From positions 1 to 64,000 of the forward strand of contig MTMD02000007.1 of assembly GCA_002010065.2 (NCBI GenBank): DNA of 64,000 nucleotides. Reading direction: 5' to 3'. Position 1 is the first letter of the stretch, and every line of letters begins with the position of its first letter. The notes beneath the pieces are model-generated. The model had not been told where the DNA came from, made no database searches, and was given only the letters and a program-made list of their open reading frames with translations. Shown piece by piece: positions 8,040 to 56,659 of this stretch. This stretch comes from Candidatus Pyrohabitans jungbluthii. GTDB taxonomy: Archaea; Hydrothermarchaeota; Hydrothermarchaeia; Hydrothermarchaeales; BMS3B. A program made the position numbers and the translations under genes.

Positions 8040-8101
8040 ACATCGCATCTATTTCGTCAAATATATAAGTGCACCTTCCAAGGCTATACGCAGGTGATGA
8101 T

Positions 8102-9072: not shown

Positions 9073-9075
9073 GCT

Positions 9076-11171: not shown

Positions 11172-11225
11172 CCAGTGTTTATATTATTTACATGAGTTAC
11201 CCCAGGAAAGATAGGAGGTATAGCG

Positions 11226-14607: not shown

Positions 14608-17600
14608 ATGAGCTCAAGAAAGGGGGTACTCTCTCTAATTACCTTTGGTCTGGTAATGACCATGTTGTGGGGCGCGGTAAGCGCCTACCATCTAACCGCC
14701 TCTACGAGCAAGATTCTGTACGAGAAGGCGGATTCACTGGTGATAAGTGGCACAGTGGAAACCAGTAGTTCAGTTACAGTTTACGTGGAAGTTTACAACT
14801 CCTCGGACAATCTTGTAGAAAGTGGGAATACTACAAGCGTTGCCGCGGGCAATATCTCCACTTTCTCGGTGTCCATACCTCTGGCAAACTTCTCACCGGG
14901 CAGCTATTATGCACTGGTTTACCACACACCTGGCGACAGCGTCAGGCTTGAGTTCGATGTTGTGGAGAAGATAGTGCTCTTCAAGATCCGTCTTATCAAC
15001 TCTTCTGATAGCGTCGTGATGGTTAACACCAGCACCGTAGTGACTGATGCCGGCTACCTAGGCGGTAACTTCTCCGATTTCCTTGCGGCTGGCTACGAGG
15101 TGCACTACGGCAACCGTAACGTGCTCGAAGGCGGCAAGCTTGCCCACTTTGTACTTGTGAATGAGAGTGCCCCCGATGTATTCGATACCGTATACGTGGA
15201 CGACGACCCGCGATTTGAGCTGTACAATTCTCTTGAGGACAACTCCTCTTCACCAATGGTTGAAACCCCCCTGAAGAAGGGCGATTCCGTTGGGGATTAT
15301 ATCGTCGCTGATATTGAGTTCACTTCCGGCAACAAGGTGCTCCTCGCCAAGCCGCGCTCCTCACCGATTTATACAGGCGGCGAAAAGGTGTACTTCATGG
15401 TGGTGGCGAGGGATAAGGTGGGCAACATCCTCAGCGGCGAGAGCATTAAGGTTGACCTGCGCTACTCCAACGGCACGATTATCTCCTCCACCTCCGGCGT
15501 AATTCAGAACGGCTACTTCGTCGGGAACTTCACAGCTCCCGACCTCGCCGGGACGTATTTAATAACTGTAAACAACACCCTTGGGATGGAGGTCTTCAGT
15601 GTAGAAGCCTTCAAGCTCTTCGGGAAGATTACTGATATAAACGACAATCCAACGGCGGTTTTTGCTCCCAATCCTGTAGTGAAGCTTACCGCCATAGCCA
15701 AGGACTTAAACGGCAACCTGCTCACCCTGAACAGCGCCCAGGCAAGAGTGGTGTATCCCAACGGTACGCAGACTACAGTGCAGCTCAGCCAGACTGAGCA
15801 GGGGCTATATTCGGGAGAACTAGACCTTAAGGGTGCGCCTACAGGCGACTACGGCGTAACCTTCCGCGGAAGCTATGGCTCTACCACTCAGGAGGTCTCC
15901 CTTGGCTTCACCATCGCAGAGAGCAGGGCGGAGCTTTACGCGGTGAATGTGGAGTTCTTAGACCAGGTGGATGAAGGTGGCATATTCGTGAGCGCCTTCC
16001 ACCCGCAGAAAGACGTAACCCTGCTTGCGATTCTCAGCGATGTTACGAAGGGCGGGCTAATGGCTTCTGGTCCTGAAGGGGCGGGTATCATAGACATAGA
16101 CGACCCCTCAACATCAGAGGACGAGTGCAACACCAGCGTTGAGCTGATAGAGCTTAAGGACGACCGTGAGGTTTCATACCTGGGCAACGTCACTGTGCAG
16201 ATAATGAACCTCTCCAACTTTATGAACTACCTCGCACAGTCGGGAGTTCAGCCTGGTGACGAAGGCCCGCCTAAGGAGATGCTGAGCCAGTGTATGGTGG
16301 TTATTAGCAACCTCTCCAAGCAGGGCGCCTACAGGGCTAAGGTGAGGATTACCCACAACAGCGAAAGCAGCGTCGCCGGCACGACCTTCGGGGTGCAGGA
16401 GCTCTACGCCTACGGCTCCACCGTAGATTTCAAGGGCGAAGAGTTTGGATTTAACACTCCAAACTCAACAATAAGGGTAAAGCTCCACGTGCAGGACCTG
16501 CTCACTAGAGAGTTCCTCCCGCCCGAGAGCATCATAAGCGCCAATATAGTAAGTTTAAGGCGGGAGTTCCCGAGCTTCCAAGATGTGCCAGTGAGCGATA
16601 TTGCAACCACTGTTGAGGTCAACGGGGGTGTACTCTCATTTAAGGCGCCCAACATGGAGGGCTTCTTCTCCATGAAGTTCAGGTTCAAGGCGAATGTGAG
16701 CAACAAAATTAAGGAGGGCGTGGGCAGCGCCTTCTTCATGCTCAAGAAGTACATCATCTGGGCGGAGCCCCAGTGCACAGGCGGCGGCTTTGGACCGTGT
16801 GTGTTCTCCGGCAAGGGCAACGTATCCCTCAAGGTGTACATCGCAGACAGCAGCAAAGGTTCGCTCCTCGACAGAGGCGCTACCTCCTCTGCGCTGTGCT
16901 CCACCTGCGACGGCTTGGCGGTAAAAATAAGCATGCTCAGAAACGACCAGCTGGGTAAGGAAATTCCATCCTCGGAGTTTACAATCTACGGCGGCAGCGT
17001 TACCAACGGTACGGCAACGCTCAACATAAGCTCCACCACCGGAGGTCTCACCTCCGGGTGGTACGGTGCCGACATAGAGGTGTACAATCCCGCCGATCCC
17101 AACGAGAGCTACTTCGGCTTCGGCTGGTTTGAGGTGCGAAACTTCTTCGTTGAGGTTATGCCTGTCAGCGTGGACAAAGCGACGGGCAACCTCACCGCCA
17201 GTTGGGGCTGGGAAGGCAACACCTACGCGGTTAACCAGTCGATAGCCTTTGCGGTGATACCGCGCGACCCCTTCAACTGGGGTATCCTGCCCATTCAGAA
17301 TGTGACCATCGCCAGCGTGCAGCGCGTTGATATGTGGCCGCCGGTGGAGGCGAATTACAAGCTTGTGGACATCTCCAATAAGCTGGTTTATATTGACATG
17401 GGCGGGTTTAAACAGGGTGTGAATGTGACGGTAGTAAACATCACCGGCATTGAAAAGGAGGGCTCCTACAGGGTCAACGTCAAGGTGACCACCGCAAATG
17501 GCTCCGACATAGGCACCATGTGGTTCGACGTGGCGAGCTTTCAGGTTAATGTCTACTACCGCGGCATGTATGAGTGGCCGCCCACCTTCGGAAGCAATGA

Positions 17601-20439: not shown

Positions 20440-20441
20440 AG

Positions 20442-21893
20442 ATGAGGCTTATAACATTTGCAGCGCTCCTGCTGGCGATTCTCACCATTCCCGGTGTATA
20501 CGCGGCTACTGTTACGGTGTCCCAGTCAGGTGCAGACCCGGGAACAGTGATGAAGGGGAGGTACTTCACAATTACCGTTTCCGGTTTGAGCGGTAGCGGC
20601 ACAGTCTCCTTGATAAACCTGCCCTCCGGTATAAGCGTGGAGGAGGGCACCACAAAGTCCTTCAGCTCAGGCACGAGTAGTGTTTCGTGGACCACCGCAA
20701 TAGCAAGCCAGACACTCACCGGGCAGAAGATACAGGTTAGCATAAGCACCACGGGTTCGCCCACAACCGCTGAGTCGGATGCCTTCGACATAGTGCTTCC
20801 CCCTTCGCTGGAGGCGAGCGTTACTCCCACTTCTTTCTCAGATCCAAGCGGTGATAAGAGCCTGCAGCTAACCATAAAGAACTGGGGCGAAACCACAGCT
20901 CGAGACGTGGTGGTGGCAATCTCACTGCCCTCGGGGGTGACCATTAAATCTGGAAGCGCAAGTCAGGTAATCTCAACGATACTCGGCGGCACAGGTGGAA
21001 GCGGTGAGAGCAAGGGCGTATCCTGGACTCTCAGCTTCAGCAGCAGCGTTACCAACAGCAGCATAAACATCTCCATAACGCCGTCAAATGCCGATGCCAA
21101 GAGTGTCAGCATACCTATAACTGTTACCACAACTACGACAATTACAACCCCAACAACTACTACAGGAGGAGGCGGTCCATCTGAGAAACCGAACATTAAG
21201 GAAATACCAAAGCTACTCACCGGCAAGTCCTACCTTGTGGTATTCGATGAGAAGTACGTGCCAGACATTGCAAGCATAGAGATATTCGCATCCCGAGACC
21301 AGTTTTACACCACTATTTCGGTTGACACGTATCAAGAGAAACCAAACTGGGTGGTATTCGACGACGCCCCGGGCAAAATCTACCGCTACTTCAGGATAAA
21401 GTACAGCAAGCCCAACACCTACATCGAAAAGGCTAAGATAGCCTTCAAATTAAACATCACCTGGCTCAAGGTTAACGACATAGACCCCTCGACGGTGGTC
21501 ATGTACCGCCTCAGCGACACCAAAGAGTGGGAGAAGCTTCCAACCACGCCGGAGAAGGCTGAAGGCGGTTATATATACTACACCGCAGAGACTCCAGGCT
21601 TCAGCTGGTTTGCGGTGTCAGCGCAGGAGAAGAGTGGCTTCAGGGACATATTCGCAGAGGCGGACGGTGTCAAACCCGAGCCAACGCCAGCGCCCACACC
21701 TGAGCCCGAGGAGAAGCCCGTTGTGACGCTTCCGCCGGTAGAGACCAAGCCGCCTGTGACAACGCCGAAGCCCAAGCCCACGCCAAAGGTGGAAGAGAAG
21801 AAGCCAGAGAAAAAGGGTATCTGCGGTCCCACTCTGGTTGCGGTTATAGCGGCACTTCCTGTGTTTCTGGGGAGGGGAAGGTTAAGAAATTAG
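20442..21893 (+). CDS. Cell-surface protein with PGF-pre-PGF domain, Pro/Thr stalk and CGP-CTERM anchor
   Basis: Signal peptide; Thr run; AETPGFSWFAV; PTP/PKP linker; KKGICGP followed by TM and basic tail. Confidence 0.85.
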   Translation: MRLITFAALLLAILTIPGVYAATVTVSQSGADPGTVMKGRYFTITVSGLSGSGTVSLINLPSGISVEEGTTKSFSSGTSSVSWTTAIASQTLTGQKIQVSISTTGSPTTAESDAFDIVLPPSLEASVTPTSFSDPSGDKSLQLTIKNWGETTARDVVVAISLPSGVTIKSGSASQVISTILGGTGGSGESKGVSWTLSFSSSVTNSSINISITPSNADAKSVSIPITVTTTTTITTPTTTTGGGGPSEKPNIKEIPKLLTGKSYLVVFDEKYVPDIASIEIFASRDQFYTTISVDTYQEKPNWVVFDDAPGKIYRYFRIKYSKPNTYIEKAKIAFKLNITWLKVNDIDPSTVVMYRLSDTKEWEKLPTTPEKAEGGYIYYTAETPGFSWFAVSAQEKSGFRDIFAEADGVKPEPTPAPTPEPEEKPVVTLPPVETKPPVTTPKPKPTPKVEEKKPEKKGICGPTLVAVIAALPVFLGRGRLRN

Positions 21894-34315: not shown

Positions 34316-34564
34316 CTAATCCTCGAAAGCGGGAATCTCTATATAAATTTCGTATGTTCTTTCTGCCACCTGCTTAACCTCTAGAACCTTGTATCCCTTG
34401 CCCTCCTGAGCCAGGCTGCGCGGTATACTCTCCACCGCCGGCGGATAGTCCACTATCACCTTGAGCTTCCCGCCGCCCGAGTAGCCTATCTCCTCAGCTT
34501 TAATCTTGGTGTACACAAAGGTATCAGGGCACTTCTCGCCGCGAAGGTCTAAAGTCTCCATCAC
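34316..34564 (-). CDS. TusA/SirA-family sulfurtransferase
   Basis: LDLRGEKCPDTF...VIVDYPPA. Confidence 0.88.
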   Translation of the reverse strand: MMETLDLRGEKCPDTFVYTKIKAEEIGYSGGGKLKVIVDYPPAVESIPRSLAQEGKGYKVLEVKQVAERTYEIYIEIPAFED

Positions 34565-35385
34565 TCATCACCCTCCGTCACACCGGAAGCTTCACTTCCG
34601 GGTAACACTGTGCATACATCTTCTACGGGTTTGGGAATAAAGTGCTCTCCACATGCGGTGCAGTCGTCTCGCTTCGCCACTCTAACCTTCTCAAAGCGCA
34701 TCTCGTCCACATTTATTATCAGCAGCTGATTCTTCAGTCCAATCTCCAGTCCAGCGAGGTAACGTATCGCCTCACTCGCCTGTATGGCACCGACGATGCC
34801 CACGACAGAGCCCAGAATACCTGCTTCTCTGCAGGTGGGTATCATGCCCGCGGGTGGCGGCTCGGGGAATACGCATCTAAAGCATGCGGTCTCGCCGGGG
34901 ATTATGCTCATCGCCCTGCCCTCGTACATCAGCGCGGCGCCGTGAAAGAGAGGCACGCGGTTAACCACGGCGGCGTCGTTAACAGCGTAGCGCACAGCGA
35001 AGTTGTCTGTTCCGTCGACGATGGCGTCATAGCCCTTGAGCAGCTCAAAGGCATTGTCGTAGGTTACCTTCTCGTTTATCCCCTCTATCTTAATCTCCGG
35101 GTTTATCTCACTTAGCCGCTTTGCCGCCATCTCCGCCTTGGGTTTGCCAACATCCTCGGGGGTGTAGAGGAACTGCCTGTTCAGGTTGCTCATCTCTATG
35201 CGGTCAAAATCGAAGATGTGAATCTCGCCCACGCCAGCCAGAGTGAGGTAAGTCGAAACCGGGCAGCCCAGTCCACCTGCCCCGGTTACAGCTACTTTGG
35301 CCTTCTTAAGCCTAGACTGCTCCTTGGTACCGAAGTCCGGAAGGATGAGCTGCCTTGAATAGCGCTTTATCTCATTCAGATTCAT
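34561..35385 (-). CDS. MoeB/ThiF/UbaA E1-like adenylyltransferase
   Basis: RYSRQ, GAGGLG, SNLNRQ, DGTDNF, CFRC, PTC, CTAC. Confidence 0.93.
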   Translation of the reverse strand: MNLNEIKRYSRQLILPDFGTKEQSRLKKAKVAVTGAGGLGCPVSTYLTLAGVGEIHIFDFDRIEMSNLNRQFLYTPEDVGKPKAEMAAKRLSEINPEIKIEGINEKVTYDNAFELLKGYDAIVDGTDNFAVRYAVNDAAVVNRVPLFHGAALMYEGRAMSIIPGETACFRCVFPEPPPAGMIPTCREAGILGSVVGIVGAIQASEAIRYLAGLEIGLKNQLLIINVDEMRFEKVRVAKRDDCTACGEHFIPKPVEDVCTVLPGSEASGVTEGDE

Positions 35386-35842
35386 GCTCTCGACTCTCCT
35401 TCAGGTAATCTTTAATCTCCCTGACGAACTGGTTGCCCAGCTCTTCAATGCGGAGCTCAAACTCCTCGCCCAGCGTGTCGCCCCTGCCTATGCCGGGGCA
35501 CTCGTCGGCGCAGCGAAGCTTGAGTACCAGCTCGTCCGCGTAAATTATCCCATCGAACAGGAAGGGATACATCTGGCAAGAGAGGGGCTTCACCCCAAGC
35601 TCATGAAGCTCACAGCTCAGATCCTCGCGCAGGAAGATGCATTTTCCAGCCTTGCCCTTGAGGCGGAAGAGCCCCTTCTCAGGCTTGAGCTCTGCGAACT
35701 CCTCCGGTGCTTTGCCTGTTGCACGGGAGATTCGCTCAACTCCTCGCGAGGTGACCACTCTGCCCTCAACGCAGCACTTGGCTCCGCACTCGCGGTAAAC
35801 GCAGGAGAAGCGCTCCACTTTGTGCGGCGAGTATATTATCAC
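35372..35842 (-). CDS. YkgJ-family Cys-cluster (Zn/Fe-S) protein
   Basis: CVYRECGAKCC, CIFL, CELH, KPLSCQMYPF, CPGIG. Confidence 0.85.
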   Translation of the reverse strand: MIIYSPHKVERFSCVYRECGAKCCVEGRVVTSRGVERISRATGKAPEEFAELKPEKGLFRLKGKAGKCIFLREDLSCELHELGVKPLSCQMYPFLFDGIIYADELVLKLRCADECPGIGRGDTLGEEFELRIEELGNQFVREIKDYLKESREHESE

Positions 35843-35845
35843 CGC

Positions 35846-36115
35846 TCAGCCTCCAGAGACCGCGGGTAAGATGCTTATAACGTCATCCTCGGCGACCTCT
35901 GTGTCTAAGCCTTTCTTGAAGCGCACATCCTCGTTGTTGTGGAAGATGTTTATAAACTGCTTTATCTCGCCGTTCTCAATTATGCGCTCCTTGAAGCCAG
36001 GCTTCGCTTTGTCTATGTTTTCTATAATCTCGCGTATCGTTTTGCCGCTCGCCTGTATTTCGGGCTTACCATCGCTGAACTTTCTAAGGGGGGTAGCAAG
36101 CCTAACTGTTACCAT
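35846..36115 (-). CDS. MoaD/ThiS/CysO-like ubiquitin-fold sulfur carrier
   Basis: INIFHNNEDVR...ISILPAVSGG C-terminal diglycine. Confidence 0.93.
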   Translation of the reverse strand: MVTVRLATPLRKFSDGKPEIQASGKTIREIIENIDKAKPGFKERIIENGEIKQFINIFHNNEDVRFKKGLDTEVAEDDVISILPAVSGG

Positions 36116-37356
36116 GCGACCACCTCCTTCTCGAGCTTCTTTTCTACTAACTCGCGAAATGCGTCGAGATCAGGCTTTATAACAGGCGGCTTTGTTAAGT
36201 AGTTCGCAAGAACGTCCTGCGTCTTTAAGCCATTGCCTGTGATGTACGCAACAACACTCTCATCGCGGTCGATTTCTCCCGCCTCAACCAGCTTTTTAAG
36301 CGTGGCTATCACAACACCGCCCGCGGTTTCTGTGAATATACCCTCTGTCTTTGCGAGAAGCTTTATCCCCTCGATGATCTCGGGATCGCTGGCAGCGCCG
36401 GCTGTGCCTCCGCTCTCCTTAATCACCTTTACTGCATAGTAGCCGTCCGCTGGATTGCCTATGGCAAGGCTCTTCTCTATCGTATTCGGCTTCACGGGCT
36501 TAATGGGCTCGCCGGTGCGGAACGCCGTGGTTACAGGCGAACATCCCTCGCTCTGGGCTGCGGTAATGCGCGTGTCTGCGCTGTCTATTAAGCCTAGAGT
36601 CTCAAACTCCTTCAAGCCTTTGTATATCTTTGTGAGCAGCGAACCACTGGCTACGGGGATAATCGCCCGCTCTGGAGCGCGCCACCCAAGCTGCTCCGCA
36701 ACCTCGTATCCTAGGGTTTTTGAGCCCTCTGAGTAGAATGGCCTCAAGTTTATGTTCACAAAGCCCCAATTATAGTAGCCTGCGATCTCAGTGCACAGGC
36801 GATTGACATCGTCGTAGTTGCCCTCCACGCTTATAAGGTTGGGGTCGTAGGCAAGGGTCTGGATTATCTTCCCGAGGTTGAGGTTCGCTGGTATGAAGAT
36901 ATAGCAGTTCAGCTTCGCCTTAGCAGCGTGCGCTGCCACGCTGTTCGCCAGGTTACCTGTGGAGGCGCAGCCCACCGTATCGAAGCCAAACTCTATCGCC
37001 TTGCTCACCGCCACGCTCACAACGCGGTCCTTGAATGAGAATGTGGGGTTAACTGAGTCGTTCTTTATGTAAAGCTCCTTTAAGCCGAGAGCTTCCGCTA
37101 AATTATCAGCGCGGTGAAGCGGTGTGAAGCCTGCCTGCAGGTCAACGATGCTCGAATCACTCTCCACAGGCAGGAGTTCGCGGTAGCGCCACAGCGTGGG
37201 TGCACGCTTCTCAATCTTCTCTTTGCTCAGCTTCTCCTTTATCGCCTCGTAGTCGTACTCTACCTCAAGCGGACCAAAGCACTCCTCGCAGATGCTTATC
37301 GCCTCTACGGGGTAGCGCTTTCCACAGTTCCTGCACTTTAGGCTAATGACCGTCAT
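36109..37356 (-). CDS. Threonine synthase-like PLP enzyme with N-terminal Zn ribbon
   Basis: CRNC...CEEC, NPTFSFKDR, CASTGN, EGSKT, PVASG, ITGNGLKT; overlaps the carrier gene. Confidence 0.88.
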   Translation of the reverse strand: MTVISLKCRNCGKRYPVEAISICEECFGPLEVEYDYEAIKEKLSKEKIEKRAPTLWRYRELLPVESDSSIVDLQAGFTPLHRADNLAEALGLKELYIKNDSVNPTFSFKDRVVSVAVSKAIEFGFDTVGCASTGNLANSVAAHAAKAKLNCYIFIPANLNLGKIIQTLAYDPNLISVEGNYDDVNRLCTEIAGYYNWGFVNINLRPFYSEGSKTLGYEVAEQLGWRAPERAIIPVASGSLLTKIYKGLKEFETLGLIDSADTRITAAQSEGCSPVTTAFRTGEPIKPVKPNTIEKSLAIGNPADGYYAVKVIKESGGTAGAASDPEIIEGIKLLAKTEGIFTETAGGVVIATLKKLVEAGEIDRDESVVAYITGNGLKTQDVLANYLTKPPVIKPDLDAFRELVEKKLEKEVVAW

Positions 37357-37463
37357 GGTATCACCTTCCAGAATACAGATATGTAACAATATATATAATT
37401 TTCGGTAAAACTTATTACCAAAAGTAATATTAAAAAATAGAGAAAATAGAAAAGCTCCCAGCT

Positions 37464-37649
37464 TCAGCAGGAGCTATGCGAGATTGCACCCTCTGGACAC
37501 GCCTCTACGCAGGCGCAGCACTCCACGCAGTCGTCGGCGTTCACCACTACGCTCTTGCCGTCGTTCAGCTCATAAACCGACGAGGGGCAGGTGTCAACAC
37601 AGGTTCCACAGCCGACGCACTTTGCTTCGTCAACGCTTATGTCTACCAT
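37464..37649 (-). CDS. 2[4Fe-4S] ferredoxin
   Basis: CVGCGTCVDTCP and CVECCACVEACP. Confidence 0.92.
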   Translation of the reverse strand: MVDISVDEAKCVGCGTCVDTCPSSVYELNDGKSVVVNADDCVECCACVEACPEGAISHSSC

Positions 37650-37821
37650 TCTCTTCAACCTCCGACTTTTCAGGGTTATCGCTGCTTATTTAAACTTTTT
37701 GGTGACCTCGCAGAGCACGAGGCACTTAAGCCCAGAGGTTTAACAAGTTAAAACTGAACATAACAAAATTTAAATATGTTAAGCTAAAGCTATGCTTGGA
37801 AAACTAAAAGGAGGCTAAGTA

Positions 37822-38028
37822 ATGGCGAACATAGAGGTTGATCTCGACGCGTGTGTGGGTTGTGGCACCTGCGAGTCTCTCTGCCCAAGCACCTTCCAGC
37901 TTCAGGACGGCAAGAGCTACGTGATTGGTGACGGCTCAGACTGCGACCTGGAAGAAGTAGTAAACAGCTGCCCGACCAGCGCAATAACTGTCGAGGGCAT
38001 AGGTTCTGCTGAGAGAAAGCAGGTGTAA
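37822..38028 (+). CDS. Single-cluster ferredoxin
   Basis: CVGCGTCESLCP...NSCPTSAI; GGAGG RBS. Confidence 0.9.
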   Translation: MANIEVDLDACVGCGTCESLCPSTFQLQDGKSYVIGDGSDCDLEEVVNSCPTSAITVEGIGSAERKQV

Positions 38029-38148: not shown

Positions 38149-39261
38149 TTAGGAGAACTTCTTCATCTCCTTGCCCTTCACGCGAGCGCCGGCGTTCATG
38201 TCGCGGATGTTGAAGATGTAGTCGTCGATGTGCTTGTGGGTGAACTCCAAGCCAGTGCGTTCGAAGAACTCCGTCCAGCCGATGCGCTCTATCCACTCAC
38301 CCATGCGCTCGTCCGGCTTGGCATCGCTGGCCCAGGCGTCGATTATCTTCTTAACTGTCTCCACAACCTCTGGCCAGCGTGGCGGGTTGTTGGGTATGAA
38401 AGGCACCGCGAGGCGCGAGAAGGCGGGACCTCCTCTGGTGTTGGAGATCTTGCCACCCACCCAGATTGAAACGCCGTCGTTCTTGGGGTCAGCCAGTGGT
38501 GTGCCTGGGCAGAGACCATAGCAGATACCGCAGTACATACACTTCTCGCCGTCTATGCTAATGCTCCTTATGGTGGTGCCGTCCTCCTTCTTTATCATCT
38601 TGGGCTTTATTGCATAGGTTGGGCACGCGGCGATCATGCTGGGAATCTCGCACGCCTTGCTAACCACTTCGTCAATAACCGTCGGTGGGCGGCGGTGAAC
38701 GCCTAGGATAGCGATATCCGAGCAGTGCACTGCACCGCACATGTTAAGGCAGCCTGAGACAGCTATTGTGAGGCGCGTGGGAAGCTTCTCGCTCACGAAG
38801 TAGTCGTATAGCTCGTCCATGAGCACCTTCTGAAGACCTGGTGAGTCAGTTGCAGGTGTGTGGCAGTGCACCCAGCCGGTGCATGCTACGATACTGCGCA
38901 CAGTCCTGCCGGTACCACCTACTGGGAATCCCAGCTCCGCAAGTTCCTTCTTCAGGGGCTCCACGTTATCTTTATTGTCCAGGATGAACTCAACGCTGTG
39001 CCTAGAGGTAAAGCGCAGGTAGCCGTTGGCATACTTGTCAGCAAGGTCGCACAGCTTGAGCACAGTCTCGCTAGCGATAAACTTGGGCTGCCCGGCGCGG
39101 ACAGTGTAGGCTTCCTCACCGCTCTCGCTTACGTGCTTGTAAACCCCTGGCTCAAGCTCCTCGTGGTACTTCCACTTGCCGTAATTGCGCTGCACCACAG
39201 GGGGGAGCATCTCCTTATAATCTGGTGGACCAAAATCCAGCTCATCAAAGGAAAGCGCCAT
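38149..39261 (-). CDS. dsrB: Dissimilatory sulfite reductase beta subunit
   Basis: NYGKWKYHE, CTGWVHCHTPA, SGCLNMCGAVHCSD, CMYCGIC, NNPPRWPE. Confidence 0.96.
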   Translation of the reverse strand: MALSFDELDFGPPDYKEMLPPVVQRNYGKWKYHEELEPGVYKHVSESGEEAYTVRAGQPKFIASETVLKLCDLADKYANGYLRFTSRHSVEFILDNKDNVEPLKKELAELGFPVGGTGRTVRSIVACTGWVHCHTPATDSPGLQKVLMDELYDYFVSEKLPTRLTIAVSGCLNMCGAVHCSDIAILGVHRRPPTVIDEVVSKACEIPSMIAACPTYAIKPKMIKKEDGTTIRSISIDGEKCMYCGICYGLCPGTPLADPKNDGVSIWVGGKISNTRGGPAFSRLAVPFIPNNPPRWPEVVETVKKIIDAWASDAKPDERMGEWIERIGWTEFFERTGLEFTHKHIDDYIFNIRDMNAGARVKGKEMKKFS

Positions 39262-39274
39262 CTTCTTTCACCTC

Positions 39275-40444
39275 CTACTCCTCATCCACCTGTACTTCGC
39301 CCGGGAAGTAGAACCAGAACGGGTTGTTCCTGGGCGCCTTCACCATCGTTGGCAGTGGGTCAAGTCCCACTTCGTGGAGGAACTTGCCAGCGCCTATGCG
39401 GTATATGGTTTCGCCGATTCTCTCCTTCGCTCTGCCGTTCTCATCCCACCAGTCGAGAAGCTTGTACATCAGCTCTTTAAGCTCAGTGTACGGAGGCTCC
39501 AGCTTCATGAAGGGTATCAGCGTCCACGCCAAGAAGGCACCGTAGCGACCTCTCGCACGTCCGCCAACGAGTATCGTGGCACCCCTGTCGTCTCCTGGGG
39601 AGAGTGCCTTGGGCATCTTCTGCAGGCAGTACATGCAGCGCACGCACTCGTCGTTGTTTATCTTGAGCTCATTACCATCCCAGCTCATCGCATTTGTGGG
39701 ACAGTTTTTAACTATGTACTCCACATCCACCTTGCCACTCTTGGCGTAGTTCCTTACTTCCTCCTGATCTATCTTGATGTCATCGCGCCAAGTACCCATT
39801 ATAACGAAGTCTGCTCTGGGAACACCTGCAACGCAATCGGTGGGGCAGCCGGAGATCTTCACCTTGAACTTGTACGGGAAGCGCGGGCGGTGCATGTCGT
39901 TGAGGATCTCTTCGTCGGTCATCAGAGTGTGGTATATATCGTTGGTGTCTATGCACGCCATTTCACAGCGCGCGGGGCCGATACAGTTGCTCGCAGTACG
40001 GAAGTCGCCAGCGCTTCCTCCAATGTCCCAGTGCTCCTTCGCTGCCTCGTCGAAGAAGGGTTCAATGTTCTCAGTTGGTATGCCCACAACCTGCAGGTCT
40101 CCAGTGGCGCCGTGGAAGTTCATCAAACCAGAGCCGTACTTGTTCCACAGTTCAACAAGCTTGCGCAGCTTCTTTGTGCTGTAGAACCACCCGGCGGGCT
40201 GGATGAACCTTATTGTGTGGGCATCTGCGAGGATGTCACGCCTGTCAGAGACCCTGCCAATAACACCAGCGTCGTAGCCGGGAACACCCACCATGCCGCC
40301 ATGGGTCCAGTGGGTCATTTTGTCTTCGTAGTTCAGCTCATAGAGCTTGAGCAGCCCAGTGTAGCCCGTCTTTTTAATCTCTTTGACTATACTGGGCCAT
40401 GGCCCCTTTTCAAGCTCGTCCAGAAGAGGGGTTTCCGATGCCAC
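39275..40444 (-). CDS. dsrA: Dissimilatory sulfite reductase alpha subunit
   Basis: TPLLDELEKGPWPS, HGATGD, CIGPARCE, FPYKFKVKISGCPTDC, CVRCMYC. Confidence 0.96.
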   Translation of the reverse strand: MASETPLLDELEKGPWPSIVKEIKKTGYTGLLKLYELNYEDKMTHWTHGGMVGVPGYDAGVIGRVSDRRDILADAHTIRFIQPAGWFYSTKKLRKLVELWNKYGSGLMNFHGATGDLQVVGIPTENIEPFFDEAAKEHWDIGGSAGDFRTASNCIGPARCEMACIDTNDIYHTLMTDEEILNDMHRPRFPYKFKVKISGCPTDCVAGVPRADFVIMGTWRDDIKIDQEEVRNYAKSGKVDVEYIVKNCPTNAMSWDGNELKINNDECVRCMYCLQKMPKALSPGDDRGATILVGGRARGRYGAFLAWTLIPFMKLEPPYTELKELMYKLLDWWDENGRAKERIGETIYRIGAGKFLHEVGLDPLPTMVKAPRNNPFWFYFPGEVQVDEE

Positions 40445-40618
40445 CTCATTTCACCTCCTGCCTTAGTTACAACAAAATCTACCTACGCCTAGCGAATTGA
40501 ATTAAAGTTTTTTTGGTATATATAATTTTTCATTAAAGTGACCAGTCTGTGCAAAGTTGCCCACAACCGTGCACAATTTTACCTCGTTAGGCTACGCTGC
40601 GCCTATGGTTGTGGTTTT

Positions 40619-41161
40619 ATGGACAAGGAGGAATTTCTGGAGAGGTTCTACCTCGACGAGGAGGAGAGGCACAAGCGTGCGGAGCGCATAAGCAAGGGGA
40701 TGGTGCGCTACGAGCGCAAGAAGAACGCCATTTTCACCTTTAAAGACAGCGTTGCCAAAATCGACCTCTGCGAGGTGTGCAGGCATCCCAAGGGCGTGAC
40801 CTATACCCTGTGCGAGGTTGTGCCGAGCTTTGAAAATGTGGACGTTGGCGAGATGCTCGTCGAGGCGAGGGAGAAGGCAGAGGTGTTCTGCAAGAGCGAG
40901 GGCACCAGGGGGCAGTGCATAATCAACATAGTGATACCCCCGGAGCCTAAGATGATTATGGAGCTTGGTGAGCACCTCGACGAGATGACAAAGCTTGGAA
41001 ACTTCGCTGTTACCGTGTACGACACGAAGAGCGGGAAGATGGGAATGCTTGTGATAGATGAGAGCTTCCTTTCAGAGCTGCGCGAGGACCCCGATTACAA
41101 GGGGATGAGCGACGCCGAGATATTCACGAATTTTATGATGAACTACGCTGAGCTACTATGA
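40619..41161 (+). CDS. Hypothetical protein with CxxC, first gene of the operon divergent from dsrA
   Basis: 180-aa ORF with host-like codon use, LCEVCRHP; 4-nt overlap with the next gene. Confidence 0.7.
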   Translation: MDKEEFLERFYLDEEERHKRAERISKGMVRYERKKNAIFTFKDSVAKIDLCEVCRHPKGVTYTLCEVVPSFENVDVGEMLVEAREKAEVFCKSEGTRGQCIINIVIPPEPKMIMELGEHLDEMTKLGNFAVTVYDTKSGKMGMLVIDESFLSELREDPDYKGMSDAEIFTNFMMNYAELL

Positions 41162-42135
41162 CGCTGCTTTGCTTATCTCTGCACCACATAAAAACGAGCT
41201 ATAAGAACTTCTCCCGGGTTAGGTTTTCCTCTCCCTCGAGCTTTTATGAGGCCACTCAGAGCTTTGGCGAGCGAGTGTTATTCCAGACTGGCACCAGGGT
41301 TGAGGTATACACTACTGGCGATTCAACATCTGCGATGCTGAAGGTGCTATCACAACACAGTGGCATCGCAGAGGAGGAACTCTCAAAGCTGTTCATGGTT
41401 TACAGTGCCTCCGACGCAGCGGAGCATCTTTTCAGACTTGCGTGCTGCATTGAGTCTCGCGTGCTGGGCGAAACCTATATCCCCTGGCAGGTGGAGGCGG
41501 CGCTTGAGCAAGCTAAAGCGGCAGGTGCCGCTGGCGAGGTGCTTGAAAAGCTTTTCGGCGCATCGCTGCAGGCAAGCAGGAGGGCAATAGAGGAGACGGG
41601 CATAGCCAAAGGCGACCTCCACATCAGGGCACTGGAGGCGCTTCGTGCAGCGACAGAGCTTAAAGGAAAAAAGGTGCTCCTGTACGGCGCAGGTTTAACC
41701 GGCAGAAGGGTTGCAAAGCTGGCTAAGCAGCATGGCGCAAGCATCGCCGTACTAAACCGCAACTACGACATAGCGCAGCGATGTGCACATGAGATTGGCG
41801 CTGAGGCGCTTAATTATGAGGAGCGCAATGACGCGCTGAGGGATGCCGACATCCTGGTATGCGCCACTCTCGCCTCGCACTACCGCGTTACCCCGGAGCT
41901 TCTCGCTAAGCTTGAGCGGGAGAAGCGCCTTGTGATTCTTGATGTCTCACCCTTCAGAAACGTCTCGCCAGAGGTGGCGAAGCTTGGCTTTGTCACCCTT
42001 GTTAACGGCGGGGTAGCGAAGGCTGCGGAGGAGAACCTCAAGGCGATGAGGGTAGAGGTTCCCAAAGTGGAGGGGATAGTGGCTGAGGAGCTGGCCAAGC
42101 TCAGGGCTGAGCTTCCTGAGCTTTTTGAGGTGTGA
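41158..42135 (+). CDS. Glutamyl-tRNA reductase (HemA)-like protein lacking the catalytic Cys
   Basis: AEHLFRLACCIESRVLGE, YGAG, LNRN, DVSPFRNV; TCNRxE replaced by TGTRVE; short C-terminus. Confidence 0.8.
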   Translation: MTLLCLSLHHIKTSYKNFSRVRFSSPSSFYEATQSFGERVLFQTGTRVEVYTTGDSTSAMLKVLSQHSGIAEEELSKLFMVYSASDAAEHLFRLACCIESRVLGETYIPWQVEAALEQAKAAGAAGEVLEKLFGASLQASRRAIEETGIAKGDLHIRALEALRAATELKGKKVLLYGAGLTGRRVAKLAKQHGASIAVLNRNYDIAQRCAHEIGAEALNYEERNDALRDADILVCATLASHYRVTPELLAKLEREKRLVILDVSPFRNVSPEVAKLGFVTLVNGGVAKAAEENLKAMRVEVPKVEGIVAEELAKLRAELPELFEV

Positions 42136-42138
42136 ACC

Positions 42139-42336
42139 ATGCCCTACATAGCGCTTGAGCTTGGCGACGAGGATTTGGAGCATGCGAAGCTGGTGCTTGG
42201 CGAAGCATGCGAGAGCTGCGAGGTTAATATAGATGGCAGAGTGGAGAAAGGGATACTGCTGTCAAAGAAGACCCCTAAAAATCTTTACGCCCTCCTCGCG
42301 ATATACATGCAGAACCGCGTGGACTGGAGGCGGTGA
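42139..42336 (+). CDS. Small hypothetical protein (65 aa)
   Basis: GAGGTG RBS, 3-nt gap after the HemA-like gene; resembles the next ORF. Confidence 0.65.
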   Translation: MPYIALELGDEDLEHAKLVLGEACESCEVNIDGRVEKGILLSKKTPKNLYALLAIYMQNRVDWRR

Positions 42337-42337
42337 G

Positions 42338-42535
42338 ATGGGCTACGTGCTCCTCGAAGTCAGCGACGAAGCCTTCGCAGCCATAGAGGCGCTGTTAAAG
42401 GGAAGCTTCCGAAAGCTCAGCGTGGAGTGCTCCTCCTTCAAAGAAGGTGAAGAGGTTCTGGTTTTCGAGGAAAGGCTGAGCTCTGGCGACTACCACCTGC
42501 TCCAGTCGATACTGGTGCAGGATTTGGAGTGGTAG
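42338..42535 (+). CDS. Small hypothetical protein (65 aa), paralog of the preceding ORF
   Basis: GGAGGCGGTGA upstream; MGYVLLEVSDE...YHLL...LEW vs MPYIALELGDE...YALL...VDW. Confidence 0.65.
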   Translation: MGYVLLEVSDEAFAAIEALLKGSFRKLSVECSSFKEGEEVLVFEERLSSGDYHLLQSILVQDLEW

Positions 42536-42536
42536 G

Positions 42537-43745
42537 CTAACTCACGCGTCTCGAAAAATTCGTAACCCTCAGCTCATTCAGTATTGCCTCTTTATTCACA
42601 TCGGGAAGCTCAATTCTGCCCGGCACGTAGGCGCAGTAGGGGTCCTCCGCAAGGTAGTCCCCGGTTACAGCGTAAGCGCGAGAGCGCGAGCCCCTGCATA
42701 TGTCGTTGAACTCGCACACTCTGCACTTACCCTTAAGCTTCGTTGCGTCGTGGAGCTCTTTCAGCACCTCTGAGCTGGAGTATATCCCTTCCAGCGTATC
42801 CTCTCTCACGTTGCCAAGCGTTACGGGCATGAAGCTGCTCGGGTAAACTTCACCCTTGTGCGCCACGAATATTCCCTTTCCAAACACCTTCTTGTCTTTG
42901 GGCTTATAGCCGCTGCCCTTTACCTCAACCTCAGGAAGCTCAACATCGCGGGTTAGCTGCTCCAGCTTTTGCCTTAGATGCCCGTATAGCGCGCCCTGCA
43001 TCAGTGCGCTTTCGTCGAGCATGCCCTCTTCAACCATGCGGCGCATAACCGCAACCCGGCGATAGGGCTCACTCCCTGCGATGGCATTCACGGTGATAAG
43101 CGGTAAACGCATGACGTCGTAGACGAAGTTGAAGACATCCTCGTACTCCTCCGGCGAAAGCGCAAGCTCTTCCGTCGCTCTGCCTGTGGGGATGAGCATG
43201 TACAGGTACCAGCCTATTGCGCCCAGTCTCTTCGCGAGAAACATAATCTCGGGCAGCTCGCGCACATTGTGCCTGGTAACCGTCGTTAGGAGGCGGAAAG
43301 GCAAACGCAGCTCTCGCATTATCTCCGTAGCTTTAACCAGCCTTTCGAAGGTTCCCGGCACGCCTCTAAAAGCGTCGTGCTGCTCTGGTGTAGCCCCGTC
43401 GATGCTTATTGCCACTGTATCGCAGCCCGCCTCCTTGAGCTTCTCTATGTTCTTCCTGTTCAGCAGGGGCGTGGTGCTGGGCGCTATCGTAACCGTGAGC
43501 CCGACGTCTTTGGCGTAGCGTATTAGGTCAAAGATATCCTCCCGCCTCAAAGCGTTGCCACCGGTGATGCGCAGTATTGGATACGGCTTGCCAAAAGCGA
43601 CAATCTGGTCAATAAAGGCGTAGCTTTCCTCTGTAGTAAGCTCCCGCGGGTCTCGTTCTGTGCGCGCACTCGCCTTGCAGTGCTTGCAGCGCAACCCGCA
43701 GGCTATTGTAGACTCCCACATCACAGAAACTGGCTTGAGATGCAT
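42537..43745 (-). CDS. Radical SAM/SPASM protein (NirJ/Ahb-related)
   Basis: WESTIACGLRCKHC, ITGG, ISIDG, GKCRVCEFNDICRGSRSRAYA...DPYC. Confidence 0.85.
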   Translation of the reverse strand: MHLKPVSVMWESTIACGLRCKHCKASARTERDPRELTTEESYAFIDQIVAFGKPYPILRITGGNALRREDIFDLIRYAKDVGLTVTIAPSTTPLLNRKNIEKLKEAGCDTVAISIDGATPEQHDAFRGVPGTFERLVKATEIMRELRLPFRLLTTVTRHNVRELPEIMFLAKRLGAIGWYLYMLIPTGRATEELALSPEEYEDVFNFVYDVMRLPLITVNAIAGSEPYRRVAVMRRMVEEGMLDESALMQGALYGHLRQKLEQLTRDVELPEVEVKGSGYKPKDKKVFGKGIFVAHKGEVYPSSFMPVTLGNVREDTLEGIYSSSEVLKELHDATKLKGKCRVCEFNDICRGSRSRAYAVTGDYLAEDPYCAYVPGRIELPDVNKEAILNELRVTNFSRRVS

Positions 43746-43833
43746 CCCCCTACCACAGAAGCATAACAAGGTAAAGCAGTAGCAAGAATCAGCCGGGAAA
43801 CAAAAATCAGAAGGAGAAAAAGGGAGAGAGAGT

Positions 43834-45477
43834 TTACTCCTCGTCGCCGCCGGCGCCGCCTTCGTCGCCTTTCTTGGTCTCACCGCTGGCAGCGATGACG
43901 TCGTCGATGCGGAGTATCATCACCGCAACCTCGCTGGCGCTGTCTATCGCCTGGCTCTTCACAGAGAGCGGCTCCACTATGCCCTCGCTGTACATGTCTT
44001 TCACTTCACCCTCGTACACGTCCAAGCCGAAGCGGTAGCCTTTGTCCTCCTTCTCGTGCTTGGCGCGCAGGGCGACGACCATGTCTATTGGATCAAGACC
44101 TGCGTTCTCTGCAAGCGCGCGCGGAATCACCTCAAGCGCGTCTGCGAAGGCCTCAATTGCAAGCTGCTCCCTGCCGCCGACGGTCTTGGCATAGTCGCGC
44201 AGGCGCAGGGCAAGCTCTATCTCGGGTGCACCGCCACCAGCTAAGACCTTGCCGTCGCGTATGGCAGCGGGCACAACGCCCAGGCAGTCCTCAAGGGCGC
44301 GCTCCACCTCATCGACGATGTGCTCAGTGCCGCCGCGTATGAGTATCGTCACGCTCTTGGGATCCTTGCACTCGCGCACAAACACCATCTCATCGTCGCC
44401 TATCTTGACCTCCTCGACGATGCCCGCATAGCCAAGGTCCTTCTCGCTCAGGTCGTCGATGTTGGTCACTATGGTAGCGCCTGTAGCCTTCGCCAGCTTC
44501 TCCATGTCGCTCTTCTTCACCCTGCGTACGGCGAAGATGCCTTCCTTGGCAAGGTAGTGCTGCGCCAAGTCGTCGATACCCTTCTGGCAGAAGAGCACAT
44601 TCGCCCCGCTCGCCTTAATCTTCTCCACCATCTCCTTAAGCATGCGCTCCTCTTCGTCGATGAAAGCCTTGAGCTGGTTCGGGTCGGTGATGCGTATCTC
44701 GGCGTCGAACTCGGTCTTCTCAATCTCCAGCGGGGCGTTTATCAGCGCAATCTTGGCGTCCTTCACCTTGCGCGGCATTCCTGGATGCACGCGCTCCTTG
44801 TCTATAACTATGCCGTTGATGAGCTCAGTATCCTCAACGGCGCCGCCCTCCTTCTTCTCAAGCTTTATGTCGTCGGTGTCTATGATGTACTTGCCATTCT
44901 CCTTCTCAGCCACGGCGCGCACTGCCTTAACCACGAGGTCTGCGAGGTACTCCTTCGCCAGCTCTGCACCCTTGCCGGTCATCGATGTCATGGCTATCTT
45001 CTTCAGAAACTCGTCGTCGTTCACGTCTATGCTCTCTGCGATCTCCTGGAGAATCTCCTGGGCTTTCTCGGCTGCCATGCGGTAGCCATTGGCGATTATC
45101 GTGGGATGTACATCCTGGTCAAGAAGCTCCTCGGCGTTCTTCAGAAGCTCGCCCGCGAGTACGACCGCCGTTGTGGTGCCGTCGCCGACCTCGTTCTCCT
45201 GAGTCTTCGCCACCTCCACCATCATCTTCGCGGTGGGGTGCTCCACGTCCATCTCTTTAAGTATGGTGGCGCCGTCGTTGGTTACGACAACGTCGCCTAT
45301 CGTATCTACCAGCATCTTATCCATGCCCTTGGGACCCAGCGTTGACTTCACCGCCTCGGCAATGACGCGCGCCACCATTATGTTGGTGCGCTGCGCGTCC
45401 CTGCCGCGGGTGCGGGTAGTTCCCTCCTTCAGTATCAACACAGGCGTACCTCCAAGCTGGGAAGGTGCTGCTGCCAT
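43834..45477 (-). CDS. ths: Thermosome (group II chaperonin) subunit
   Basis: [33 protein letters not shown]. Confidence 0.98.
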
Positions 45478-46048: not shown

Positions 46049-46288
46049 TTACTTTCTCTTTTTCAGCAGCCTCTTAAATTCCTCAACAGTTAAATCGGCA
46101 TCTCTGATAATACTTTTAACCAACTTTGGGTGGAGAATTTTTCCGGAATGGTATGGTACTGTAATTCGCACACCTTTATCATTCTTGTAAATCTTATGAC
46201 TCCCACTCTGCCTCACAAGGTAAAAACCTACCTTTTCGATTACCTTTATAACGTCTCTGGCGGTCACCCTCGGAAGCTTTTCACTCAT
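46049..46288 (-). CDS. hicA: HicA-family toxin
   Basis: GFYLVRQSGSHKIY...ITVPYH. Confidence 0.92.
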   Translation of the reverse strand: MSEKLPRVTARDVIKVIEKVGFYLVRQSGSHKIYKNDKGVRITVPYHSGKILHPKLVKSIIRDADLTVEEFKRLLKKRK

Positions 46289-46509
46289 ACTGTAACTTCC
46301 ACCGCTGCCAGGTTTATCATCTCAACTCTGGGTATCTCCTCCCCCTCTTCCAGCCTATCTTTAATATGAAGCTTTATTGCATCTTTAATGTTCTCCAAAA
46401 CCTCCTCATAGGTATCCCCCTGTGTATAACACCCCTGCAACTCAGGACAATAAGCAAAGTAACCATTTTCGTCCTTCTCTATCACTACAGACACTCTATA
46501 GACAGTCAT
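46285..46509 (-). CDS. hicB: HicB-family antitoxin (no DNA-binding domain)
   Basis: YFAYCPELQGCYTQGDTYEEVLENIKDAI. Confidence 0.92.
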   Translation of the reverse strand: MTVYRVSVVIEKDENGYFAYCPELQGCYTQGDTYEEVLENIKDAIKLHIKDRLEEGEEIPRVEMINLAAVEVTV

Positions 46510-56069: not shown

Positions 56070-56456
56070 CTACCAGCTTCTCACCTTAAGCCCTTTAATT
56101 CTGCTGAAGTGCTTCACATTTCTTGTAATCAGCGTGAGGTCATACGTTGCCACCGTCGCTGCAATCATCACATCCCTCACATCTAGGCTGAGCCCCTCCT
56201 TCTTCAGGGTTGCAAAGATTTCCCCCGCCCTCTCAGCGCAGGCATCGTCGAAGGTGAGGATGTGAAACTTGGACAGCAGATTTTTAGCCTCTCTGACGGC
56301 TCTCCCGCCGGTGTAATATGCGCCGGCGTAGAGCTCGAAGGCATTTATGACGGTGGTGAACCTCACCCTCTCCCTGTCCAGCTCCTCAATCACCGGCACA
56401 GCACTCTTATCCCCCCTGAGCACCGCCACGAGGAAGTCGGTATCCACGCACTTCAA
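56070..56456 (-). CDS. vapC: VapC PIN-domain toxin
   Basis: VDTDFL, FELYAG, DVMIAAT, ITRNVKHF. Confidence 0.93.
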   Translation of the reverse strand: MKCVDTDFLVAVLRGDKSAVPVIEELDRERVRFTTVINAFELYAGAYYTGGRAVREAKNLLSKFHILTFDDACAERAGEIFATLKKEGLSLDVRDVMIAATVATYDLTLITRNVKHFSRIKGLKVRSW

Positions 56457-56659
56457 GGCATAGCCTCCGTGTACTTCTTCCAGGCTTTCCTGAGGTCTTT
56501 CATAACCTCCTCATCTATACTGCACCTGCCAAAGCTGTCCATAATCCTGCCCTCCTTTGCAACAAGCCGCTTGATGACGTCGGAGAAACTCTCGTCTCTC
56601 CTCTTCACACTCTTCAGGAGGTTGTAGCTCTCCTCCGTAATAGTAATGGTCTTTGCCAT
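56453..56659 (-). CDS. vapB: VapB antitoxin (archaeal RHH/DUF217 type)
   Basis: MAKTITITEESYNLL...ESFSDVIKRL; overlaps vapC. Confidence 0.88.
   Translation of the reverse strand: MAKTITITEESYNLLKSVKRRDESFSDVIKRLVAKEGRIMDSFGRCSIDEEVMKDLRKAWKKYTEAMP

Follow-up and report, generated by a model that had tools for sequence, protein, structure and literature searches.

A HemA-like paralog without the catalytic cysteine, tied to one DsrAB type in Hydrothermarchaeota, as a candidate Dsr accessory protein

What does a protein with the fold of glutamyl-tRNA reductase (GluTR, the product of hemA) do beside the genes of dissimilatory sulfite reductase when its catalytic cysteine is missing? The question is raised by a locus of Candidatus Pyrohabitans jungbluthii (GCA_002010065.2), located in a stretch of 64,000 nt (contig MTMD02000007.1, positions 1 to 64,000) that was analyzed as a whole, which we call the window, and whose thermosome, HMG-CoA reductase and RFC genes give it an archaeal character. 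A first-pass annotation of this sequence had described a four-gene operon divergent from dsrAB, built around a HemA paralog, and had proposed possible new Dsr accessory genes. We found that the HemA-like paralog is evolutionarily tied to one type of DsrAB and to an extra radical S-adenosylmethionine (SAM) enzyme. Since the paralog and the radical SAM enzyme occur only in those relatives that have this sulfite reductase, the paralog is probably a helper of DsrAB that was previously undescribed. The locus comprises these features:

40619-41161, plus strand: open reading frame 1 (ORF1), 180 aa, with a CxxC motif (C51xxC54)
41158-42135, plus strand: HemA-like paralog, 325 aa, GluTR N-terminal domain and NAD(P) Rossmann domain
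42139-42336, plus strand: s65a, 65 aa, without known family
42338-42535, plus strand: s65b, 65 aa, without known family
42537-43748 (longer open reading frame to 43883), minus strand: radical SAM/SPASM gene (TIGR04053), CxxxCxxC present
39275-40444, minus strand: dsrA, 389 aa, TIGR02064 score 478.5, above the cut-off of 392.85
38149-39261, minus strand: dsrB, 370 aa, TIGR02066 score 485.6, above the cut-off of 341.5
40445-40618: divergent intergenic region between dsrA and ORF1, 174 bp
37822-38028, plus strand: small ferredoxin with a single 4Fe-4S cluster, recurring beside the cluster in relatives

The four plus-strand genes are tightly packed: ORF1 and the HemA-like gene overlap by 4 nt (ATGA), followed by gaps of 3 nt and 1 nt. 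dsrA lies divergent from ORF1 at 174 bp, and the radical SAM gene converges on s65b with 1 nt separating the stop codons; the motifs and coordinates that the first-pass annotation gave for the four-gene locus were all correct on re-reading of the sequence. Judged by their equivalog scores and the DsrA motifs, dsrA and dsrB encode the dissimilatory sulfite reductase DsrAB. Namely, the DsrA translation contains Cx5C, Cx3C and Cx2Cx2C motifs (CIGPARC, CPTDC and CVRCMYC), following the definition of the sirohaem Cx5C...Cx3C and ferredoxin Cx2Cx2C motifs in the portion of PMC12948486 used here. A canonical hemA, whose presence elsewhere in the genome had been left to be checked, was found on a separate contig between a SirC-like gene and hemB, encoding 444 aa with an intact TCNRVE and with GEDQILGQV; two CbiA/CobB homologs are also encoded elsewhere in this genome.

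A Pfam scan of the HemA-like protein matched GlutR_N (PF05201, 1.8e-25) and Shikimate_DH (PF01488, 1.7e-19) and did not match the dimerization domain PF00745, and its score against TIGR01035 (195.5) lies below the equivalog cut-off of 209.55. The AlphaFold2 (AF2) model has a predicted local distance difference test score (pLDDT) of 94.9 and its best solved match is 1gpj, the GluTR of Methanopyrus kandleri, followed by plant GluTRs; phmmer connects the protein to 1gpj at 1.3e-34 with 31% identity. Where the nucleophilic Cys is expected, the sequence FQTGTRVE (residues 42-49, 41281-41304) has Gly45, in GETYIPWQV (residues 104-112) Tyr107 replaces the Gln of the GExQ motif, and GAGLTG (residues 177-182) leaves GxGxxG intact. 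Pfam and the alignment thus confirm the earlier description of a HemA-fold protein that lacks the catalytic Cys and most of the dimerization tail and retains the Rossmann motif. In the alignment to 1gpj, Gly45 pairs with position 48, which we take to be the GluTR nucleophile position, Thr46 with Asn49, Arg47 with Arg50, Glu49 with Glu52, His90 with His84, Ser100 with Ser94 and Glu105 with Glu99; R47, E49, H90, S100 and E105 are presumably equivalent to the glutamate-recognition residues R52, E54, H99, S109 and E114 of E. coli GluTR. A complex prediction of the HemA-like protein with ORF1 scored 0.01, which counts neither for nor against their pairing, and a search for fused forms among longer proteins found none at E <= 1e-20, which is weak evidence. 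We also considered that the protein replaces homoserine dehydrogenase and dropped this idea, as a canonical PF00742 gene is present in the genome.

Is the missing cysteine a peculiarity of one genome? A word-indexed search returned about 50 short homologs of 228-354 aa (294-354 aa bar one partial record), with identities between 39% and 98%, and ranked the canonical GluTRs after them, at no more than 34% identity. PF00745 is present in none of the short homologs P0005-P0054 and in 19 of the 20 canonical-type matches ranked below (P0055-P0074). A hidden Markov model (HMM) search of 1.84 billion representatives gave about 10 such clusters (50% identity) at 216-488 bits, and all its remaining matches were canonical GluTRs, from 234 bits downward. 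In this search and in a species-wide scan the family was found only in Hydrothermarchaeota-type genomes, where the databases label it 'glutamyl-tRNA reductase' or 'hypothetical'. We examined 79 family proteins at the Cys position, of which one fragment lacks the region; among the 78 counted, the residue is Gly in 64, Thr in five, Asn and Ser in three each, Glu, Arg and Pro in one each, and Cys in none, and the distant copy of genome G037 has Ala. GxGxxG is found in 75 of the 79, with P0084 as the sole real exception, since the other three are two short fragments lacking the region and a 245-aa fragment in which the scanned interval does not cover it.

We then compared 73 full-length family members with 125 canonical GluTRs, a set chosen by its TCNRxE motif, so that the Cys contrast is there by construction. 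Common to both groups at 85% or more are R47, E49, H90, S100, G104, E105, G177, G179, R201 and D262, and the pocket residues are invariant across members that share 40-50% mutual identity. Family-specific swaps turn Asn to Thr46 (100%), Gln to Tyr107 and Pro to Phe266, and the new invariants of the family are H9, F29, Y30, the C235-A-T-L-A-S-H block and R243. In a quick maximum-likelihood tree all 22 paralog rows fall on one side of a branch with a Shimodaira-Hasegawa-like support (SH-aLRT) of 100, and by this measure the family is a discrete clade apart from canonical GluTRs. The ratio of nonsynonymous to synonymous divergence (dN/dS) within the genus is 0.13-0.22 for the HemA-like gene, 0.06-0.14 for ORF1, 0.12-0.19 for s65a, 0.12-0.26 for s65b and 0.02-0.04 for DsrAB, and the paralog is hence under purifying selection. 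Because Cys is absent from all 78 proteins, the clade is discrete and dN/dS is low, the loss of the Cys is old and fixed, in a gene that is maintained. Judging from these sequences, the Cys-less paralog is neither decay nor sequencing error, either of which orthologs retaining the Cys would have indicated; none retains it. As separate observations, the synonymous divergence (dS) between the window and locus L003 is mosaic, with 0.16-0.25 for the HemA-like gene, s65a and s65b, 0.84 for ORF1 and 0.62-0.89 for dsrAB, which suggests recent recombination inside the cluster; and genome G022 has two HemA-like copies, each with an s65a-like gene that lies divergently upstream (37-237 in both L007 and L010) and not downstream as in the window.

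To what extent does the paralog keep company with dsrAB? A pattern scan over 185,579 species, each represented by one genome, found 24 loci, all in metagenome-assembled genomes labeled Hydrothermarchaeota, Methanobacteriota archaeon or archaeon, the nearest of them labeled Ca. Pyrohabitans. A tblastn search with the window proteins placed dsrAB within the locus in 13 of the 24. Of the 11 loci without it, eight end about 1.2 kb or less upstream of the paralog or ORF1, and L006, L012 and L015 have unrelated genes there. Ten of the 24 loci contain the radical SAM gene, seven contain s65a and/or s65b, and in eight ORF1 immediately precedes the paralog. The small ferredoxin matched near the cluster in L003, L004, L005, L009, L011, L014, L016 and L021, and also in L038. 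At least four gene orders exist between lineages, and the adjacency persists despite this reshuffling: dsrA divergent from the HemA-like gene, with or without ORF1; dsrB, then the ferredoxin on the opposite strand, then the HemA-like gene (L009); the HemA-like gene, the convergent radical SAM gene, the ferredoxin and then dsrBA (L016, L021); and ORF1 directly upstream of either the HemA-like or the radical SAM gene. All four genes stand together only in the closest relatives, namely the window and L003-L005. The 'four-gene operon' therefore holds for the window and its genus and fails as a fixed unit: 12 of the phylum's 38 genomes have ORF1, and seven of the 24 loci have the 65-aa pair. Two observations stand apart from this comparison. 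Between s65b and the radical SAM gene, the two nearest relatives, L003 (7966-10464) and L004 (11366-13815), carry an insert of about 2.5 kb that is absent from the window and encodes a 414-aa secreted or lipoprotein-like protein and a 388-aa protein that by eye resembles an FtsX-type ATP-binding cassette (ABC) permease. The distant HemA-like copy of the G036/G037 family (L027, 4062-4958; QTATRID) adjoins what by eye seem to be a Bud32-type kinase gene and ribosomal protein genes.

We next traced each gene through these 38 genomes and sorted the matches into three classes by frame length and by their score per position. In 22 genomes the paralog is either complete or almost so, at 223-485 bits in frames of up to 356 aa, or seen as contig-edge partials (best 242-303 bits), and a distant copy in two more (G036 and G037) brings the total to 24. 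DsrA above the TIGR02064 cut-off, or contig-edge pieces of dsrA or dsrB, occurs in exactly the same 24 genomes, of which G003, G004, G005, G021 and G034 show only dsr fragments, with the type uncertain for G004 and G005. The 14 genomes without the paralog (G010, G019, G020 and G023-G033) are also without the high-scoring dsrAB type: 11 have at most distant sulfite-reductase-like matches below 100 bits (none in G026), and in the other three (G023-G025) the sole DsrA is of a lower-scoring type (327-349 bits). This second DsrAB type, whose DsrA falls below the TIGR02064 cut-off, is an observation of its own; some genomes have it by itself and others together with the high-scoring type, and it is never accompanied by a HemA-like gene of its own. 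Both DsrA types are present in G013 and G015, and in G013 the paralog lies 155 bp from the high-scoring one. In G001, G002, G006 and G035 the paralog and dsrAB are on different contigs, yet both are present, and the 12 genomes with ORF1 are all among the 24 dsr-positive ones. The linkage to dsrAB is thus conserved in the neighborhood (13 of 24 loci) as well as genome-wise (24 of 24 genomes against 0 of 14), which makes 'possible new Dsr accessory genes' a fair reading.

The radical SAM gene, which the first-pass annotation treated as a mere convergent neighbor, tracks with dsrAB and the paralog instead. Its product exceeds the TIGR04053 cut-off (412.9 against 395), matches PF04055 and PF13186 and has the motif CGLRCKHC; its closest relatives with a name are AhbD (TIGR04545), against which it scores 308.3, below the cut-off of 500, and NirJ2, at 198 bits. 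The TIGR04053 type at 393 bits or more is present in 17 of the 24 dsr-positive genomes, with two further partial copies, and in none of the 14 negatives. A TIGR04053 type of about 310-375 bits is nearly universal, with or without dsr; in the window's genome this second, housekeeping copy lies on another contig and is the better AhbD match, at 463.7 bits against TIGR04545, also below the cut-off. We count the radical SAM gene as part of the module because it tracks dsrAB and the paralog and because in G015 and G016 ORF1 is located directly upstream of it, in place of the paralog. Its open reading frame (448 aa) extends 45 codons upstream into the 3' end of the thermosome gene (43834-45477), and Met46 (43748), where homology begins, is the likely start. 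In G036 and G037 (L029, 7117-10557; L030, 1417-4737), a different NirJ/AhbC-like radical SAM gene (383 aa) stands directly upstream of dsrAB.

How do these parts compare with known systems? The HemA-like protein shares with GluTR (1gpj) the GlutR_N domain, the Rossmann domain with GxGxxG, the start of the long helix and the Arg/Glu/His/Ser/Glu pocket. Unlike GluTR, it has no nucleophilic Cys, has changed Asn to Thr and Gln to Tyr, is about 120 residues shorter without the dimerization domain, scores below the cut-off, forms a separate clade beside canonical hemA and has the invariant blocks CATLASH..R and SPFxN of its own. The radical SAM neighbor, with CxxxCxxC and SPASM, resembles AhbD/NirJ, which act in the sirohaem-dependent synthesis of haem b and haem d1; what sets it apart is a score too low for AhbD (308 < 500), its membership of TIGR04053, a family without a name, and its restriction to genomes that have dsrAB and the HemA-like gene. 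Precorrin-2 dehydrogenase (SirC/Met8p/CysG-N) is an NAD-dependent Rossmann enzyme working on an isobacteriochlorin precursor by a chemistry that needs no Cys; its fold family differs from that of the HemA-like protein, and a SirC-like gene already lies beside canonical hemA. DsrN, a sirohaem amidase encoded with dsr genes, is the known precedent for tailoring of the DsrAB cofactor (PMC10504309, in the portion drawn on here), likewise through a paralog of a tetrapyrrole-pathway enzyme, but as a CbiA/CobB-type amidotransferase its fold and chemistry are different. DsrD is a small protein that activates DsrAB allosterically. Hydrothermarchaeota are reported to lack it (consulted part of PMC8794893), which leaves room for lineage-specific accessories. 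The 65-aa proteins are likewise small and encoded beside dsrAB, and the Pfam scan did not match PF08679 (DsrD) in them.

What, then, might the paralog do? Without the Cys, an acyl ester could not be reduced through a thioester, so no glutamate-1-semialdehyde would be made, and a supply of sirohaem through 5-aminolevulinic acid (ALA) made without the Cys is unlikely. The conservation of GxGxxG, of the Arg that follows beta-2 and of the residues of the glutamate pocket favors a protein that binds ligands and is probably catalytic. We tentatively propose, at somewhat less than even confidence, that the HemA-like protein is a repurposed GluTR reductase, dependent on NAD(P)H, in a module that tailors or matures the sirohaem-type cofactor of DsrAB. 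Each of the two conserved partners is a paralog of an enzyme of the tetrapyrrole pathway, one acting at its first step and the other at its last, and DsrAB depends on sirohaem, which makes a cofactor-tailoring module the most economical proposal. The protein would have kept a pocket for a glutamate- or propionate-like carboxylate together with the NAD(P)H site, and would have abandoned thioester chemistry, the tRNA-dependent dimer architecture and ALA synthesis; it may act as an NAD(P)H-dependent oxidoreductase that transfers hydride directly to or from a carbonyl, imine or C=C of a carboxylate-bearing molecule. The extra AhbD/NirJ-type radical SAM enzyme and the small ferredoxin would be its partners in one lineage-specific module, which ORF1 and the two 65-aa proteins would join in some lineages, and whose product would be a tailored or matured sirohaem-type isobacteriochlorin cofactor for the early-branching DsrAB of Hydrothermarchaeota. 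A bolder version, which we consider rather unlikely, has Hydrothermarchaeota supply this DsrAB with a novel derivative of sirohaem or of one of its precursors, made through two recruited paralogs: a thioester-free, GluTR-derived reductase whose former glutamate pocket would grip a side chain (propionate or acetate), and the AhbD/NirJ-type radical SAM enzyme as the second, with the ferredoxin, the CxxCxH protein and the two small proteins as optional helpers.

Several points weigh against the cofactor-tailoring proposal. We infer catalysis, substrate and the effect on DsrAB, and the substrate is a guess. DsrAB-bearing lineages elsewhere manage without the paralog family, which, being limited to Hydrothermarchaeota-type genomes, is not a general requirement of Dsr. 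The 14 negative genomes are four whole families plus G010, and since related genomes do not count as separate cases, a small number of gains or losses may underlie the pattern; for G010 (93% complete), one missing contig could explain all absences. The paralog is not adjacent to dsrAB in at least six genomes (G001, G002, G003, G006, G035 and G037), the radical SAM gene lies 1 Mb away in G013, and G002 (96% complete) has no high-scoring radical SAM type. In the most distant copies (G036, G037 and P0084) GxGxxG is degenerate, as would suit a non-catalytic role at least there, and the predicted nuclease-like fold of ORF1 has no obvious fit to a tetrapyrrole pathway.

Other readings of the paralog have to be weighed against the same data. 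That it is a working glutamyl-tRNA reductase isoenzyme feeding sirohaem synthesis for DsrAB would suit the homology and the retained glutamate-pocket residues, but this is barely conceivable given that no member has Cys or any conserved nucleophile at the position, that its score stays below the TIGR01035 cut-off, that the dimerization domain is absent and that canonical hemA is encoded in the same genome. A pseudoenzyme deserves more weight, if still on the unlikely side: the protein would only bind a ligand (glutamate, a Glu-like metabolite, NADP(H) or sirohaem) and serve DsrAB or the radical SAM enzyme as sensor, chaperone or allosteric partner, perhaps in the niche of DsrD, given its reported absence (PMC8794893, same part). 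This agrees with a Cys position free to vary (G/T/N/S/E/R/P/A), with the degenerate GxGxxG of the most divergent members and with a paralog dN/dS 4-6 times above that of DsrAB. However, GxGxxG and the Arg after beta-2 are otherwise kept, the pocket residues do not vary at 40-50% identity, and the Rossmann domain has a new invariant C-A-T-L-A-S-H...R block, which together with the kept motifs looks like a remodeled active site and not like drift.

The target might also lie outside tetrapyrroles, which we judge to be less probable than a pseudoenzyme. SPASM enzymes include many peptide maturases, and the radical SAM enzyme could mature a protein or peptide (the 65-aa proteins, DsrA/B/C) or act with ORF1 on a nucleic acid such as tRNA, the HemA-like protein, whose ancestor bound tRNA, supplying a redox step in sulfur-linked chemistry. 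The NCBIfam matches of the enzyme that come next after the Ahb/NirJ group are indeed maturases (mycofactocin, PqqE and the like), the paralog is followed by two conserved small proteins in translational coupling, ORF1 has a predicted PD-(D/E)xK-like fold (Z 10.9), and a TusA/E1/ThiS sulfur-carrier cluster lies just beyond dsrB. Yet the matches of the enzyme to AhbD/NirJ (7.5e-92 and 2.7e-58) are far stronger than those to peptide maturases (E of 4.7e-35 or above), the small proteins and ORF1 are missing in many genomes that keep the HemA-like gene, the radical SAM gene and dsrAB, and the HemA-like protein has lost the GluTR dimerization domain, which is also used to reach tRNA. Finally, the link may be only historical, the paralog having an unrelated housekeeping role and being inherited or lost with the same genomic island as dsrAB. 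The confinement of the negatives to a few whole families and the unrelated neighbors in L012, L013, L015 and L027 (tRNA-splicing endonuclease, purP-like, MTHFR, IF2/eIF2-gamma and Bud32-like kinase) speak for this; we find it improbable, as the co-occurrence persists where the genes are unlinked (G001, G002, G006 and G035), the adjacency survives several gene orders, and in G013, with its two DsrAB types, the paralog is beside the high-scoring one.

GluTR is regarded as a single-purpose enzyme, and the Cys-less clade, if the repurposing is true, would be the first repurposed member of the GluTR fold. To our knowledge, the standard dsr gene list (DsrABCMK(JOP), N, D, L) holds nothing comparable. 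A literature search found no description of a Cys-less archaeal GluTR-like family or of TIGR04053. Supplements aside, whose synteny tables could list such neighbors, the term 'glutamyl' is absent from the portions covered of PMC10504309, PMC12948486 and PMC6775978, and 'radical SAM' from those of the first two; the covered portion of PMC11237513 mentions only HemA-HemB and AhbAB-AhbD fusions. We put forward this subfamily of the GluTR fold, whose nucleophile is lost, as a candidate Dsr accessory specific to its lineage. Its strict tie to an early-branching DsrAB type and to an extra AhbD/NirJ-like enzyme suggests a cofactor or maturation chemistry peculiar to this lineage, in a system that is used for reconstructing the origin of sulfite respiration. 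The sirohaem-derivative version, if true, would open a new branch in the biosynthesis of modified tetrapyrroles and define a new class of accessory genes for Dsr. For annotation, the label 'glutamyl-tRNA reductase' on this family would falsely credit a genome with a second ALA-forming enzyme.

The remaining genes of the locus, ORF1, s65a and s65b, are optional members of the module, and the four genes as an exact operon are confined to the genus. ORF1 had no match to a Pfam or NCBIfam family, and a profile search collected 40 proteins, none with a Pfam domain and all named 'hypothetical protein'. Eight aligned orthologs share an invariant C51-E-x-C54-x-H56-P and H119. The AF2 model of ORF1 (pLDDT 93.8) had no Foldseek match at E <= 0.001 (best E-value 1.7e-3), and VIA-align gave 12 chains at Z >= 8, the best being 2okf_B (Z 10.9, root-mean-square deviation 2.6, 122 residues), with the listed chains mostly of nuclease-fold, XisH-like and restriction-endonuclease-fold type. 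The model thus predicts a PD-(D/E)xK (restriction-endonuclease-like) fold, a type built on an alpha-beta-beta-beta-alpha-beta core; D/E49, E52 and E66 are conserved acidic residues, and with no Lys after E66 there is no clear D...(D/E)xK signature. Best matches in the ESM Atlas, a DUF8052 cluster for ORF1 (0.90) and generic small alpha/beta look-alikes for s65b (0.77), were not usable. Orthologs of s65a were found in L003, L004, L005, L011, L021, L007 and L010, and those of s65b in the first five of these loci. An impression of a shared beta-alpha-beta-beta-alpha pattern in the two small proteins was unsupported, as BLASTP between them gave no alignment.

The intergenic region 40445-40618 contains a TATATATA box and, upstream of ORF1, a block about 55 nt long (TGCAAAGTTGCCCACAACCGTGCACAATTTTACC..GTTAGGC). 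In an alignment of four genus-level loci this block is nearly invariant, despite a dS of 0.6-0.9 in the flanking genes, and it is probably a promoter or operator. A structured RNA leader was rejected, with a fold z of -0.11 against shuffles and no Rfam match.

Just beyond dsrB, the minus strand of the window (34316-37658) carries a sulfur-carrier gene set:

34316-34564, minus strand: TusA
34561-35385, minus strand: MoeB/UbaA-type E1
35846-36115, minus strand: ThiS
36109-37389, minus strand: threonine-synthase-like pyridoxal phosphate enzyme with an N-terminal zinc ribbon
37464-37658, minus strand: 2x[4Fe-4S] ferredoxin

The set looks like a thiocarboxylate-dependent route to Cys or homocysteine beside a 'dissimilatory' sulfite reductase, and its gene order is the same in L004 and partly so in L003. 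Further away, at 8069-11636, a small CfbA/CbiX-type sirohydrochlorin chelatase gene (11226-11636) comes after the cbiMNQO transporter genes; its product scores 113 bits, just below the cut-off of 120, and it is another tetrapyrrole gene less than 30 kb from dsrAB. The region 14608-21893 holds a 1943-aa open reading frame without NCBIfam match, which probably encodes a very large surface protein, and after it a gene for a protein with a PGF-pre-PGF domain; toxin-antitoxin pairs are encoded at 46049-46509 (HicA/HicB) and 56070-56659 (PIN/VapB).

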